Virus record (IMG/VR): IMGVR_UViG_3300023174_000097
Location: 1-64,000 of that record
Source of the DNA: a virus
Length of the DNA stretch: 64,000 nucleotides
Strand: one strand, 5' to 3'
The notes beneath the pieces are model-generated. The model made no database searches, had not been told where the DNA came from, and saw only the letters and a list, made by a program, of their open reading frames with translations. Numbering within the stretch: the first letter of the stretch is position 1; each line of letters begins with the position of its first letter. The position numbers and the translations under genes are program-made. Shown here one piece after another: positions 56,683-61,736 of the stretch.

Positions 56683-56684
56683 CC

Positions 56685-56713
56685 TTGACAAGACGCGAAC
56701 GAGCTGATAGCGT
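56685..56713 (+). promoter_or_regulatory. Sigma70-type promoter upstream of the primase locus
   Basis: TTGACA (56685-56690), 17 bp, TGa-TAGCGT (56708-56713); ATG follows at 56723. Confidence 0.55.
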
Positions 56714-56722
56714 CGTGCTTGA

Positions 56723-56869
56723 ATGTCCGACTCCCACAAAGAACAGATCCTCATAGAAATTCTAAGCACTCCCCTCCGTTCTGGCGGGGAGTTACTTTTT
56801 TATTGTCCTAAATGCAAACATCATAAACCAAAATGCGATACTATTTATCATTATGCAACAAATTATTAA
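56723..56869 (+). pseudogene. Orphan 5' fragment of DNA primase, 48-aa ORF, not in the ORF track
   Basis: MSDSHKEQILIEILSTPLRSGGELLFYCPKCKHHKPK matches the primase N-terminus at 57640-57735 in 23 of 32 residues. Confidence 0.85.
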
Positions 56870-57659
56870 TACTGGAATATATTGCATAAGAAACATTATA
56901 AACAATAAAATATACATTGGTTCTTCGTGTAATATTAAAAAAAGATTTAGATATCATAAATGGCAATTAAATAACAATAAACATCATTCATTTTTACTAC
57001 AAAATGCGTGGAATAAATATGGAGAAAATAGTTTTGTATTTGAAGTTCTACAAGAAGTAGAAACACATTTACTGATAACCGAAGAACAAAAATGGCTAGA
57101 TGAAAAGAAAACATATCAACCAGAAAATGGGTACAACATATCAAACATAGCAGGAAATCCTTTAAATTTATTTACAGAAGAAACAAGAAAAAAGATTTCA
57201 CTCAAAAATAAAGGAAAAATAGTTTCTGAAGAAACCCGTAAAAAAATGAGTGCTTCTCGTCTAGGAAAATCTCTTTCGGAAGAGCATAAGAAAAAATTAA
57301 GTGAAATAAAGAAGGGGAAAACGTTTTCGGAAGAACACAAAAAAAATTTAAGTAATTCACAAAGAGGATTAACTAGACAATTTTCGGAACAACACAAAAA
57401 GAAACTAAGTGAAGCAAAAAAAGGAAAATGTATTTCTAATGAACACAAACAAAAGATCAGTTTGACTAGCCGTGGAAGGAATAGTAAACTTACAGCAGAA
57501 CAAATTTTAGAATTAATTTCTTTATATGAGACAGGAAATCATTCTACAAGAGAATTAGCAAAAATTTTTAATATTTCTAAAAGCAACGTCCATTCAATTG
57601 TTGCTAGAAAGACGTGGAAATACCTTGACGATAAACCAGAAGGAACAGATATTAATTGA
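56853..57659 (+). CDS. GIY-YIG homing endonuclease with NUMOD3-like repeats and C-terminal HTH
   Basis: GIYCI.N..N.KIYIGSS, LQNAWNKYG, repeated SEE(T/H)KKK(L/M)S, terminal HTH. Confidence 0.92.
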   Translation: MQQIINTGIYCIRNIINNKIYIGSSCNIKKRFRYHKWQLNNNKHHSFLLQNAWNKYGENSFVFEVLQEVETHLLITEEQKWLDEKKTYQPENGYNISNIAGNPLNLFTEETRKKISLKNKGKIVSEETRKKMSASRLGKSLSEEHKKKLSEIKKGKTFSEEHKKNLSNSQRGLTRQFSEQHKKKLSEAKKGKCISNEHKQKISLTSRGRNSKLTAEQILELISLYETGNHSTRELAKIFNISKSNVHSIVARKTWKYLDDKPEGTDIN

Positions 57660-58566
57660 TATTTTTGGAGTTCCTCTACACTCAGGAGAGGAATTACTTT
57701 TTCAATGTAAGAAGTGCTCACATCACAAGCCTAAACTGAGCTGTAATGTCCGTAAAAACGTTTTTAAATGTTGGGTATGCAACTTTACGGGAACTAACTT
57801 AACAAGGCTGGTAAAGCGTTATGGTTCGTATAAACAGAAACAAGAGTGGAGTAGGTATGATGACAAAATTGATTTGTCTTCCACTTCTTTTGCAGATACT
57901 TTATTTGGAGAACAAGAAGCAAATGAGACGCTACTTAATCTCCCTAAAGAATTTATTTCCTTAACAGGAAAGCACAATTCTCTTTCAAATGTCGCTCTTC
58001 GTTATTTATATGAGCGAGGAATAACAAAAGAAGATATTTTAAAGTGGAAGATTGGTTATTGTCCGGATGGCGAATATGGTGGACGAGTTATTGTTCCCAG
58101 CTTCAACCTTGAAGGAAAAATAAATTATTTTATTGGTCGTTCTTATCGTGATGATTGGATGAAATATAAAAATCCGCCACTGCACAAAAATTCTATTATC
58201 TTTAATGAATTATATGTTGATTGGGATAGTGATTTGGTCTTGACAGAAGGCGTATTTGATGCTATTGTCGCGGGTAATGCTATACCCCTTCTCGGTTCAA
58301 CTTTACCCGAAACAAGCCGTTTATTTCAGGAAGTTGCGAAACATGACACGCCGATTTACATTGCGCTTGATCCGGATGCGGAGAAAAAAGCGAAATACTT
58401 GATTAGAGATATGTTGCAATATGGAATTGAACTCTATAAAATAGATGTTCGTGGTTTCCAAGATGTTGGCAGCATGACTAAGCAAGAATTTGTAGAAAGA
58501 AAAAATTCTGCATTACCGATGAATGCAGAAAGTTTATTTAAGTATCAATTACAAGGAATCATATGA
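57625..58566 (+). CDS. dnaG: DNA primase (zinc-binding domain plus TOPRIM)
   Basis: CKKC...CWVC zinc site, YL.ERGI, KYKNP, TEGVFDAI, ALDPDA; probable TTG start at 57625. Confidence 0.9.
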   Translation: MTINQKEQILIDIFGVPLHSGEELLFQCKKCSHHKPKLSCNVRKNVFKCWVCNFTGTNLTRLVKRYGSYKQKQEWSRYDDKIDLSSTSFADTLFGEQEANETLLNLPKEFISLTGKHNSLSNVALRYLYERGITKEDILKWKIGYCPDGEYGGRVIVPSFNLEGKINYFIGRSYRDDWMKYKNPPLHKNSIIFNELYVDWDSDLVLTEGVFDAIVAGNAIPLLGSTLPETSRLFQEVAKHDTPIYIALDPDAEKKAKYLIRDMLQYGIELYKIDVRGFQDVGSMTKQEFVERKNSALPMNAESLFKYQLQGII

Positions 58567-61500
58567 TTAAACTCGCACATCTGGCTGACACACATATCAG
58601 AAACCTAAAATATCACGAAGAATATCGTGAAGTTTTTAAAAAAATCTTTTCAATTCTACGAGAAGAAAAGCCCGATTATATTATCCATTGTGGTGATATT
58701 GCTCATACAAAAAATCAAATTTCACCAGAATTTGTTGAGATGTGTTCTTGGTTCTTAAAAGAACTTGCGGACATTTCACCAACATATGTTATTCTTGGCA
58801 ATCATGATACAAATTTAAAGAACGATACTCGTCAAGATAGTATTTCTCCTATCGTTGCCGCACTTAATCATCCAAATCTAACGCTTTGGAAATATTCAGG
58901 TGAACGAGTTATTAGCGATAAACTTGCTTTTAACGTTCTTTCACTAATTGACGAAGATAAATGGGTCAAACCATCAGACCCAAATCGCATCAATATTGCT
59001 CTTTATCACGGAGCAATTGCTGGTGTATCAACCGATATTGGTTATACACTAGAACATTCAGATCATGAGCTTTCAATTTTTGAAGGCCATGATTATGCTT
59101 TTTTAGGCGACATACATAAGACAAATCAAATTGTTGATACAGAAGGACGTGTTCGTTATCCGGGTTCAACAATTTCCCAAAACCATGGGGAAACTGACGA
59201 TAAAGGTTTCCTAATTTGGGAAATTCAAGATAAGAATAATTTTGATGTTCGTCATATTGTAATTCCACATCCTCGTCCATTTATTACAATTAAGCTTGAT
59301 GAAAGTGGCAAGTTTGACGAAACAATTAACATCAAACCAGATGCTCGCATTCGTGTTATTTGTGAACACAACATTTCTGTAAGCGATATTCGCAAATCAA
59401 TTGATGTTATTAAGGTAAAATATATTCCAGAAAGCGTTACCTTTTTAAATAAGGCAACTGATCGTATTGATATCAGTGATACAATTAAAAAGATTGATAC
59501 AGATGATTTGCGTAATCTGCAAACACAAGAAAAACTACTTCGTGAATATTTAAAAGACTTCAGCCCGTCAGAAGAAGTTTTACAAAAAGTATTTGAAATA
59601 AATAAAAAATATAATACAATTGCAGAAGAAAATGAAGAAGTTTCTCGTAATATTCGTTGGTCCTTGAAATCACTTAAATGGGATAATCTATTCAATTATG
59701 GAACTGCTAATAAAATAGATTTTGAAAAACTTCAAGGTGTTGTAGGAGTTTTTGGTAAAAACTTCTCAGGTAAATCCAGCATTATTGATAGTTTGATTTG
59801 GGGAATTCAAAATTCAACAAGTAAAAATGTTCGTAAGAATGTAAATATCATTAATCAAAATCAGCAAAATGCAAAAGCAGAAGTTCAAATTTCTGTTGAT
59901 GATAAGCTTTACATAGTTGAAAGAACTGCTGAAAAGTATTTAAAGAAACTTGCCGGCGAAGAAACACTTGAAGCAAAAACAGATGTATCTTTTAGTGTGT
60001 GCGATGCAAGCGAACAAGAAGATTGTATTACCTATGAAAAAGGCAATCTAAATGGTCTTGACCGCAATGAAACAGACAAGAATATTCGCAAACTATTTGG
60101 AACATTAGAAGATTTTCTTTTTACTTCTATGGCTTCACAAATGGGTTCGCTTGATTTTATCAACGAAGGTTCAACTCGTCGTAAAGAAATTCTTGGAAAG
60201 TTTCTTGATCTTGAACTCTTTGCAAAGAAATATAAACTATCAAACAATGACGCCACAGAACTCAAGGCAGCTTTAAAGCGTCTTGAAAGCAAAGATTACG
60301 ATAAAGAAATCGCTGAAACCCTTATCAAAGGCTCAGAGGCAAAGAAAAAAGCAGAACTGCAGTCTATTGAGTGTGAAGAAGTAAAAGAAGAAATAAAACA
60401 ATTTGCAGACAATATTAACAACATTAATGTTGAAATTGCTTCATTTCCAAAAATAGAAGTTATTGATGTAGATGGAGTAAAACTTTCTCTTAAAAAAATA
60501 GAAGATGATATTCTTGGTTGGCAAACAACAATTGGTACAAATTATAAATTTATTGAAGAAAAAGAAAAAGCATTAGAAAATGCAAGAAAAGTAATTGATG
60601 AAATCAAAATAGATGAATTAAACAATAAAAAACAAACCTTATCAGATAAAAATAAACAACTTGAAAAGGTTTTAAGAGAAATCACGGACGTAGAGAAGGA
60701 TATTCTACGTGATCAAAAAGATATTAAAATCCTTGATGAAGTGCCATGTGGCGATGGTTTCCCATCTTGCAAGTTCTTGACTGATGCTTTTAGCAAAAAA
60801 GCAGACTTGGAAGATAAAAATGAACTTGTAAAAATCTCAAACAAGAAAAAACAAGCGATTGAAGAAGAAATCAAAGAATTAAAGCCAGACGAGATAGAAA
60901 AATCAATCTCAACGCGTAATGTTATTCTTGAAAAGATTAGAAACATGGAAAATCTTATCTCTAATAAGAAACTTGAAGCAGAACAGTTAAATGGAAAAAT
61001 TATTCTATCTCAAAATCTAATTGAAAAACTAGAAAAGAAGATAGAAGATTATTATAAGAATGAAGAAACTGCTCTAAAATTAAAAGAACTAGATGATAAA
61101 AAGCAAGAATTTACTTCGCAAAAGAATAAGCTTTCAAAGAAACTTGTTGAGTGTGAAGCAAGTATATTAAAATTACATCGTGAATATGGTTCATTAGAAC
61201 AGAAATATAAAGATTTAGAGGAATCAAAAAGCGAACTATTAAAATTACGAGATGAATATGCGGCTATTGCTATGTTTGAAAAAGCCATGCACAGCAACGG
61301 AATTAGTTACGATATTATTCGTAAGAAACTCCCAGTAATAAACGAAGAAATTGCAAAAATTCTTTCAAATATTGTTGGATTTGAAATTTTCTTTGAAGAT
61401 GATGGAAAGAAATTAGATATCTTAATCAAACATCCAAAATATGATCCACGTCCACTTGAACTTTGTTCCGGTGCAGAAAAGAGTCTAGCGGCTATGGCAA

Positions 61501-61736
61501 TCCGTTTAGCGTTAACTAAATTAACTACTTTACCTGTGAGTGACGTATTTATATTAGATGAACCAGCAACTGCTCTTGATGAAGAAAATATGGAAGGCTT
61601 TATGCGTATAATTGATATGTTGAAATCACAATTTAAAACAATTATACTTATTTCTCACTTGCCAGAATTGAAAGATGTTGCTGATCTACAAATAACTATT
61701 GATAATGTTGATGGTTATGCGCATGTGGAGGCTTAA
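58563..61736 (+). CDS. Fused Mre11-Rad50 (SbcD-SbcC; T4 gp47-gp46-like) recombination nuclease/ATPase
   Basis: ADTH, GD, GNHD, GDIH nuclease motifs; Walker A GKNFSGKS, coiled coil, CSGAE signature, ILDEP, ISH. Confidence 0.92.
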   Translation: MIKLAHLADTHIRNLKYHEEYREVFKKIFSILREEKPDYIIHCGDIAHTKNQISPEFVEMCSWFLKELADISPTYVILGNHDTNLKNDTRQDSISPIVAALNHPNLTLWKYSGERVISDKLAFNVLSLIDEDKWVKPSDPNRINIALYHGAIAGVSTDIGYTLEHSDHELSIFEGHDYAFLGDIHKTNQIVDTEGRVRYPGSTISQNHGETDDKGFLIWEIQDKNNFDVRHIVIPHPRPFITIKLDESGKFDETINIKPDARIRVICEHNISVSDIRKSIDVIKVKYIPESVTFLNKATDRIDISDTIKKIDTDDLRNLQTQEKLLREYLKDFSPSEEVLQKVFEINKKYNTIAEENEEVSRNIRWSLKSLKWDNLFNYGTANKIDFEKLQGVVGVFGKNFSGKSSIIDSLIWGIQNSTSKNVRKNVNIINQNQQNAKAEVQISVDDKLYIVERTAEKYLKKLAGEETLEAKTDVSFSVCDASEQEDCITYEKGNLNGLDRNETDKNIRKLFGTLEDFLFTSMASQMGSLDFINEGSTRRKEILGKFLDLELFAKKYKLSNNDATELKAALKRLESKDYDKEIAETLIKGSEAKKKAELQSIECEEVKEEIKQFADNINNINVEIASFPKIEVIDVDGVKLSLKKIEDDILGWQTTIGTNYKFIEEKEKALENARKVIDEIKIDELNNKKQTLSDKNKQLEKVLREITDVEKDILRDQKDIKILDEVPCGDGFPSCKFLTDAFSKKADLEDKNELVKISNKKKQAIEEEIKELKPDEIEKSISTRNVILEKIRNMENLISNKKLEAEQLNGKIILSQNLIEKLEKKIEDYYKNEETALKLKELDDKKQEFTSQKNKLSKKLVECEASILKLHREYGSLEQKYKDLEESKSELLKLRDEYAAIAMFEKAMHSNGISYDIIRKKLPVINEEIAKILSNIVGFEIFFEDDGKKLDILIKHPKYDPRPLELCSGAEKSLAAMAIRLALTKLTTLPVSDVFILDEPATALDEENMEGFMRIIDMLKSQFKTIILISHLPELKDVADLQITIDNVDGYAHVEA

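Follow-up and report, generated by a model that had tools for sequence, protein, structure and literature searches.

We describe a homing endonuclease gene (HEG) that lies inside the primase gene of a large tailed phage together with a second, diverged start of that same gene. The window analyzed here comprises the first 64 kb (64,000 nucleotides, nt) of a 103.7-kb virus record from lake water in the IMG/VR database (IMGVR_UViG_3300023174_000097). On its plus strand, the primase promoter is followed by an orphan primase 5' end (hereafter N1), 19 nt containing the motif ACTATTTAT, a GIY-YIG-type HEG, a second primase 5' end (hereafter N2), and the remaining primase gene up to position 58566. 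With a probability of roughly 0.8, we interpret positions 56834 to 57735 as an intronless homing cassette composed of the endonuclease and a diverged, probably cleavage-resistant primase 5' end. An earlier reading of this DNA from its letters alone (the sequence-only reading) had proposed this order of features, and checks of sequence, open reading frames (ORFs), and domains placed all of them where it had put them. Its figures for the two gene starts were likewise exact, with copies 902 nt apart that are identical at 23 of 32 residues and use different codons for 13 of these 23.

Occupied and empty alleles of the primase gene

Our primase search of IMG/VR retrieved 12 close relatives (78% to 87% amino acid (aa) identity) and many more at around 50%. 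In the following, W denotes the window's own allele, L-numbers denote loci fetched from IMG/VR or metagenomes, and X-numbers denote sequencing runs. Ten of the close relatives encode one contiguous primase with a single start, directly preceded by the same type of promoter and lacking any HEG (the empty alleles are L001, L002, L004 to L010, and L012, besides L215 described below). This contiguous order of promoter, N1, and primase body is what the sequence-only reading had predicted for empty alleles, and none of the relatives without the HEG keeps both copies of the gene start.

The occupied arrangement is present in at least four lineages, namely W, L003, L133, and a 21.7-kb contig of run X7. 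L003 has the same layout as W (N1, 19 nt, HEG, N2, and primase) with a HEG of 71% to 73% aa identity; L133, found by a metagenome scan with two HEGs, has its promoter and N1 in full; and the X7 contig is unbroken across both junctions and shares approximately 94% identity with W between the N1 ATG and the stop of the primase but is unlike it beyond both ends. Because four independent assemblies show the arrangement, it is not an assembly artifact, and both junctions are also spanned at 100% identity by short contigs of two further runs from other studies. The cassette has the same 902 nt in L003 (positions 102 to 1003) as in W and spans about positions 543 to 1443 in L133. On the left side, the N1 copies of W, L003, and L133 match native alleles up to ...CAT CAT AAA CCA AAR, where the primase homology of all three breaks off at the identical base and gives way to a homologous 19-nt leader (NNN GAT ACT AWT TAY ...) and the ATG of the HEG. 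On the right side, N2 ends in ...AAA and is followed by CTN TCC/AGC TGT AAT; this right junction zone (Table 1) probably belongs to the co-converted tract.

The closest view of an insertion comes from a pair of alleles within one metagenome (3300023184). A pattern search for the empty junction returned five IMG/VR contigs, among them L215, which derives from the same sample as the occupied L003; the occupied junction, sought in the same way in IMG/VR with W's own record left out, was matched by the L003 contig alone. The left arms of L215 and L003 are identical at 99/99 nt, and their right arms (135 nt compared) differ only at positions +3 and +15, both synonymous changes in leucine codons, with approximately 120 nt beyond being identical. 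L003 is L215 plus the 902-nt cassette and a co-conversion tract of at most 15 nt. The L215 contig terminates 148 nt beyond the junction and that of L003 starts 12 nt into N1, as expected for an assembly bubble. A stretch of AAC-TTT-ACG downstream of the L003 junction had looked like a co-conversion tract in comparison to L002 but was dropped as a candidate, since the empty L215 of the same sample shares these bases.

Comparison of the cassettes with their surroundings revealed a conflict between the two. The flanks of L003 are 98% and 95% nt identical to the empty allele L002, and those of L133 are 96% and 90% to 92% nt identical to the empty alleles L004 and L008. L003 and L133 share only 74% to 80% nt identity in flanks and primase bodies (synonymous divergence (dS) of 1.28), whereas their cassettes are nearest to each other (HEG 88% nt identical with a dS of 0.56, N2 93%). 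In maximum-likelihood trees, for the primase body as well as for a neighboring gene, L003 and L133 fall into separate, well-supported clades, each occupied allele standing beside an empty one (L003 with L002 at 100/100, L133 with L008 at 99/98). For W and L003 the conflict is reversed, with a dS of 1.54 for the HEG and of 0.82 for the flank. Codons 1 to 27 of N1 in L133 are those of L004 (81/81 nt), while codons 28 to 32 differ at 5/15 nt towards the "CPKCK" of the other N1 copies, which is compatible with co-conversion on the left by a donor that had an N1 of its own. Furthermore, runs X2 and X4 contain an N1-HEG-N2 segment identical to that of W, followed from approximately 57927-57972 by a primase that differs from W by about 10%, so that the same cassette is found on a second primase haplotype.

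Taken together, we find presence or absence at a fixed site among close relatives, co-conversion of the flanks, and a cassette phylogeny at odds with that of its hosts. The unit of HEG and diverged gene start therefore appears to move between phages, and the mobile unit that the sequence-only reading had postulated gains its support from the cassette/flank conflict and from the short tracts of co-conversion at either side. Vertical descent in which the cassette was precisely lost again and again does not account for this conflict or for the haplotype and co-conversion patterns. Loss by recombination between N1 and N2 would also be expected to leave N2-type sequence behind, but all empty alleles are free of it.

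A second type of cassette is found among the relatives at 50% identity. L053 and L054 encode a 210-aa GIY-YIG HEG that is 38% identical and shares 56 nt with a diverged primase start; L030 is their near-isogenic empty partner (95% to 97% identity in both flanks). Comparing L054 (3322-4063) with L030 (3964-4081), we see that promoter spacer, -10 box, and about the first 30 primase codons have been replaced and that no orphan is left behind. The L054 cassette has the usual layout of a free-standing HEG, linked here to a diverged primase start, and it is plausible that this layout is a precursor or a derivative of the in-ORF layout of W. More homologues of the GIY-YIG HEG (37% to 43%) are located downstream of Mre11/Rad50 in L005 (7010-7705), L006 (8178-8873), and L011 (4179-4697); such HEGs appear to have a hot spot in the replication module of this group of phages.

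Replacement gene start, endonuclease, and orphan 5' end

The start of N2 lies exactly 902 nt past the N1 ATG in the same register (Table 1), and the TTG start codon of W is aligned with an ATG in L003 and L133. The primase ORF that begins there matches DNAG_N in Pfam and the DNA primases of PHROG, is 78% to 87% aa identical to the full-length primases of the relatives, and is collinear with their single ORFs across N2 and the remaining part. The identity between N1 and N2 extends from K6 to K37 (the 23/32 residues noted above; tblastn E ~1e-12), and their synonymous sites are saturated (proportion of synonymous differences, pS, of 0.75 to 0.78; 0.78 in W), so that there is no long identical run for recombination between them. 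N2 stands apart from all native N-termini (51% to 68% nt identity). Next to the junction, N2 of W keeps HHKPK with three consecutive third positions changed and the next serine codon altered from TCC to AGC, while N2 of L003 and L133 reads ENSSKNK with one additional codon. These 15 nt by the junction are almost invariant across native alleles and N1 copies, a pattern compatible with a target that lies at the junction or slightly to its left and that would be immune in the cassette.

Table 1. Coordinates of the features of the occupied primase locus in the window.
Feature	Position	Strand	Description
Primase promoter	56684-56712	+	TTGACA (56684-56689), 17 nt, TAGCGT; 9 nt before N1 ATG
N1, orphan first 37 primase codons	56723-56833	+	resident 5' end; ends HHKPK
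Terminator-like hairpin (ACTCCCC...GGGGAGT) and T-run	56768-56803	+	inside N1; -15.8 kcal/mol, z -3.3
Inserted cassette, 902 nt	56834-57735	+	19-nt leader, HEG, and replacement primase codons 1-37; missing from empty alleles
ACTATTTAT motif	56840-56848	+	recurrent, strand-specific, promoter-like; 4 nt before HEG ATG
GIY-YIG homing endonuclease gene, 268 aa	56853-57659	+	I-TevI-like catalytic domain, NUMOD3 repeats, C-terminal helix-turn-helix
N2, replacement primase codons 1-37	57625-57735	+	TTG start; overlaps HEG 3' end by 35 nt
Probable functional DnaG-type primase ORF (N2 and resident C part)	57625-58566	+	complete CxxC...CxxC zinc finger, Toprim core
Right junction zone	57736-57750	+	Ser is AGC versus TCC in all native alleles; X7 has AGT

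The HEG product has a GIY-YIG domain with an intact set of motifs (Pfam PF01541, 5.7e-10) and a DNA-binding region with matches to NUMOD3 (3.9e-10) and HTH_7 (4.6e-07). Its catalytic domain is homologous to I-TevI (phmmer; PDB 1mk0 and 1ln0; E ~1e-12), and the whole protein falls among the homing endonucleases of PHROG (8e-39). Intact in all three alleles W, L003, and L133, the gene has a ratio of nonsynonymous to synonymous divergence (dN/dS) of 0.10 to 0.14 and is under purifying selection. It has its own start, its frame differs from those of N1 and N2 with stop codons intervening, and its stop codon lies within N2, so that the HEG and primase ORFs overlap. Outside the window, at 80001-80129 of the genome, a 43-residue stretch resembles the N-terminal part of the HEG product that contains the GIY-YIG motif (58% identity) and may represent a second small GIY-YIG gene or a remnant of one.

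Each lineage has an N1 that looks native to the recipient. In W it is 77% to 83% nt identical to the native N-termini of relatives (ratio of nonsynonymous to synonymous differences, pN/pS, of approximately 0.2), and it is 99% to 100% identical to the empty partners L002/L215 in the case of L003 and 95% identical to L004 in the case of L133. N1 contains just half of the zinc finger. Its ORF spans 56723-56869, with HHKPK being followed by 11 unrelated codons and a stop at 56867-56869, and the frame is open in all three occupied alleles W, L003, and L133. In L003 (TAG-T-ATG) and L133 (TAA-T-ATG), a single nucleotide separates the N1 stop from the HEG ATG, while in W the stop lies 14 nt after this ATG and N1 overlaps the HEG start by 17 nt; this spacing suggests translational coupling of N1 and HEG.

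The orphan also retains the promoter region of the gene. A consensus promoter scanner omitted the primase promoter, whose -10 box matches the consensus at only 3/6 positions, but TTGAC-N17-TAnnnT is found at the same place in L001, L002, L004, L005, L007 to L009, L133, and L030 with unrelated spacers. Because its position is conserved in at least nine relatives, we accept the sigma70 promoter that the sequence-only reading had called here. The primase -10 box ends 6 to 9 nt before the ATG in every relative (L001 to L012, L133, and L030), and therefore the primase mRNA is probably leaderless or nearly so. Within N1, the terminator-like hairpin has counterparts in all close native alleles (L001, L002, L004, and L007 to L009), where a GC-rich hairpin of -16 to -21 kcal/mol is followed by TTTTTTAT at 45 to 80 nt past the primase start (codons 15 to 28), with a compensatory change of CCCC/GGGG to CCTC/GAGG in L007 and L009. 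The hairpin is weaker in N2 of W and gone from N2 of L003 and L133 as well as from L005, L013, and L054. The N1 hairpin derives from the 5' end of the native primase gene and resembles an intrinsic terminator or attenuator within coding sequence.

These features raise the question of whether N1 has a function of its own, either as a leader ORF that supports termination-reinitiation at the HEG or as the carrier of an attenuator hairpin. The close spacing of N1 stop and HEG start, the hairpin with its T-run kept in N1, and the frame kept open in three alleles all speak in favor of such a function, yet N1 so resembles the recipient's sequence that its intactness may only mark a recent insertion. 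We consider a separate function of N1 rather unlikely; it would be compatible with a homing cassette.

The motif upstream of the HEG, called a late motif in the sequence-only reading, was borne out as a real recurrent element by a genome-wide count. ACTATTTAT(A) is present 9 times on the plus strand and 0 times on the minus strand of the 103.7-kb genome, and 8 of the 9 copies are located 4 to 39 nt before an ORF start; those within the window lie at 2084, 6954, 37924, 46888, 55607, and 56840. The motif recalls the T4 element TATAAATA and is a candidate late or middle promoter element. Before the HEG it is preserved in L133 and degenerate in L003. Because ACTATTTAT is strand-specific and found just upstream of ORFs throughout the genome, the HEG may have its own, probably late, promoter.

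A blastn comparison of the 4.2-kb region with GenBank phages gave zero matches, and tblastn against these phages found distant primases only, at up to 39% aa identity, in Flavobacterium phage immuto (the top match) and in SPO1/Twort-like phages. Behind the primase, a single ORF of 1057 aa (58563-61736) encodes an Mre11/SbcD-like phosphoesterase domain fused to a Rad50/SbcC-like SMC ATPase, and in W the two genes overlap by 4 nt (ATGA). In L003 (1831-1974) and in the X7 contig, as a loose end behind 58566, a 47-aa ORF (MKVYVVIEVWY...) lies between the primase and the Mre11/Rad50 gene.

Proposed homing and alternative explanations

From the observed anatomy, the presence/absence polymorphism, the shared junction, the co-conversion, the phylogenetic incongruence, and the purifying selection on the HEG, we infer the following course of events. 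Upon co-infection by an occupied and an empty phage, the enzyme would cut the empty primase allele near the CPKCKHHKPK/LSCN codons. The break would then be repaired off the occupied genome, with homology provided on the left by N1 and upstream DNA and on the right by the primase body. In the recipient, this would strand its own 5' end as N1, followed by the HEG and by N2 in frame with the recipient's own primase body, and because of this in-frame fusion the essential gene would stay whole without splicing. The occupied allele should escape cutting, given that the right half of the site is missing from N1 and that the junction of N2 with the primase body has a rewritten left half, in W through synonymous changes and a serine codon switched from TCC to AGC and in L003 and L133 through replacement of HHKPK by ENSSKNK. 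The primase promoter and the leaderless N1 ORF would probably feed expression of the HEG as well.

Alternatively, the locus could be a passive scar, i.e., the product of one illegitimate recombination event that put a free-standing HEG from the neighborhood and a foreign primase start into the gene and was then inherited vertically and sometimes lost, without the primase being a target of the HEG. It is true that the first junction between N1 and a HEG must have arisen illegitimately, that free-standing HEGs commonly adjoin replication genes, and that the HEG of the L054/L030 pair lies merely upstream of the primase. A scar is nevertheless difficult to reconcile with a cassette divergence that falls below that of the flank for L003 and L133 and above it for W and L003, with an isogenic occupied/empty pair (L003/L215) within one sample, and with co-conversion tracts that adjoin both junctions. 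Its precise loss between N1 and N2 would also have left N2-type empty alleles, of which there are none, and we regard this history as improbable.

Rescue at the level of RNA or translation, through a group I intron or bypassing like that of gene 60 that links N1 to the primase body with N2 as a bystander, seems more improbable still. N1 is an open frame behind a true promoter, and T4-type phages have both tricks at their disposal (PMC2988022; bioRxiv 10.1101/2022.08.31.505936), but the locus leaves no room for a ribozyme core, since there are only 19 nt between N1 and the HEG ATG and none between HEG and N2. An Rfam scan with cmscan (all families, E up to 10) found no group I or group II intron and only chance-level matches. 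The 902-nt gap greatly exceeds known bypassing; the peptide after HHKPK of N1 is unconserved (CDTIY..., PDTNY*, and QDTIY*); and the N2 start is in register, completes a full zinc finger, and opens an intact frame in three lineages. An intein, of which a Pfam scan detected no domain, is ruled out by the differing frames and stops between N1, HEG, and N2 (the sequence-only reading had likewise noted no visible hallmarks of introns or inteins), and a gene split by a HEG as in nrdA of Aeh1 is ruled out because N2 and the C-terminal part form a full-length primase.

Several observations weigh against the interpretation as a homing cassette. Only four occupied alleles are known, and we found no near-isogenic empty partner of W; the contigs of four runs contain no joint that skips the insert, though contigs drop rare variants. 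A tblastn search with both N2 types against more than 200 fetched loci detected no native N-terminus closer than 58% to 74% aa identity that might be the donor. N2 may have been recoded under selection or acquired from an unsampled distant phage, and both would fit. In W, the TTG start of N2 has only a weak GGA upstream, translation of the primase from N2 is assumed, and no RNA runs are listed with the locus. Moreover, no CNNNG motif of the I-TevI type was found by eye 23 to 25 nt upstream of the junction in native alleles.

Related systems and biological meaning

HEGs are known to enter essential genes by few routes only, namely within introns or inteins, at intergenic sites, or by splitting the gene into pieces that reassemble. 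The homing cassette in the primase gene would represent a further route in phages, in which the element enters an ORF and, through the diverged gene start that it brings along, repairs the gene at the level of DNA.

The closest parallel is found in fungal mitochondria, where the mobile ORFs (mORFs) of Glomus atp6, atp9, cox2, and nad3 carry foreign gene 3' ends and leave the native end stranded (PMC3630166); atp6 of Allomyces macrogynus is cited there as another case. In these elements, the inserted copy is approximately 64% to 81% nt identical and conserved as a protein, while the native orphan is near-identical to the gene ends of close relatives (PMC3630166), and the same identity pattern at the primase locus bears out the analogy that the sequence-only reading had drawn. 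Both systems combine an endonuclease ORF with a diverged duplicate of a gene end, orphan the native end, and do without splicing. Unlike in mORFs, however, it is the 5' end that is replaced in the primase and the orphan retains the promoter of the gene, the HEG starts independently and overlaps N2 rather than being fused in frame, and the target is a replication gene of a double-stranded DNA phage instead of an organelle respiratory gene.

Among phages, the free-standing GIY-YIG (Seg) and HNH (Mob) HEGs of T4-like phages are known for intronless homing (PMC2988022, PMC2330249), in which a relative without the HEG is cut and repaired with co-conversion of the flanks. The cassette shares with them the I-TevI/Seg-like family, modular DNA-binding repeats, the lack of an intron, and a conserved essential target. 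Seg and Mob HEGs are normally intergenic, or they split a gene into two polypeptides (nrdA of Aeh1, gene 60/39, and gene 43), and gene splitting is the only outcome that the T4 review gives for inserted HEGs (PMC2988022); in our case, the primase would be neither split nor functionally interrupted, because the cassette supplies its new start. I-TevI itself, from the T4 td intron, has a homologous catalytic domain and the same architecture of catalytic domain, linker repeats, and helix-turn-helix, and the left co-conversion of L133 at -16 to -30 nt would fit a cut 20 to 30 nt upstream of the insertion. In contrast to I-TevI, the HEG in the primase is not encoded in an intron, and we recognized no CNNNG at the corresponding distance.

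Fragments of essential genes in the HEG islands of ICP1 and other phages have been discussed by Barth et al. as possible recombination substrates for homing (PMC10055350). They are mentioned there in passing, whereas junction, replacement, empty allele, co-conversion, and transfer between lineages are resolved at the primase locus. The sequence-only reading had known of no such arrangement in a phage primase, and in the literature that we searched we found no account of a phage HEG that lies within an ORF and furnishes that ORF with a new 5' end. The earlier claim is too broad, however, in that essential-gene fragments beside phage HEGs as such do have a precedent. The logic of a nuclease that targets an essential gene and comes linked with a recoded and cleavage-resistant rescue of the targeted part is also that of synthetic home-and-rescue or cleave-and-rescue drives (bioRxiv 10.1101/2019.12.13.876169), though the primase element is natural, protein-guided, and viral, and the resemblance is one of function only.

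Tentatively, and with somewhat less than even confidence, we suggest that the cassette may be a natural phage "home-and-rescue" drive that aims inside an essential replication gene and carries a recoded, cut-resistant rescue. The stranded 5' end would be reused as promoter, attenuator, leader ORF, and left homology arm, and this could be a general strategy by which intronless endonucleases enter ORFs in viruses, with the L054-type layout as its intergenic precursor. The locus comes with natural controls for such ideas, i.e., an isogenic empty allele from the same sample, two subtypes with different "immune" sequences, and a related cassette without an orphan. The arrangement helps to account for small orphan ORFs and gene fragments beside phage nucleases, and it shows that the 5' ends of essential genes are exchangeable between diverged phages. 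As a homing cassette, it would be a natural counterpart of engineered drives that combine a nuclease with a recoded rescue.

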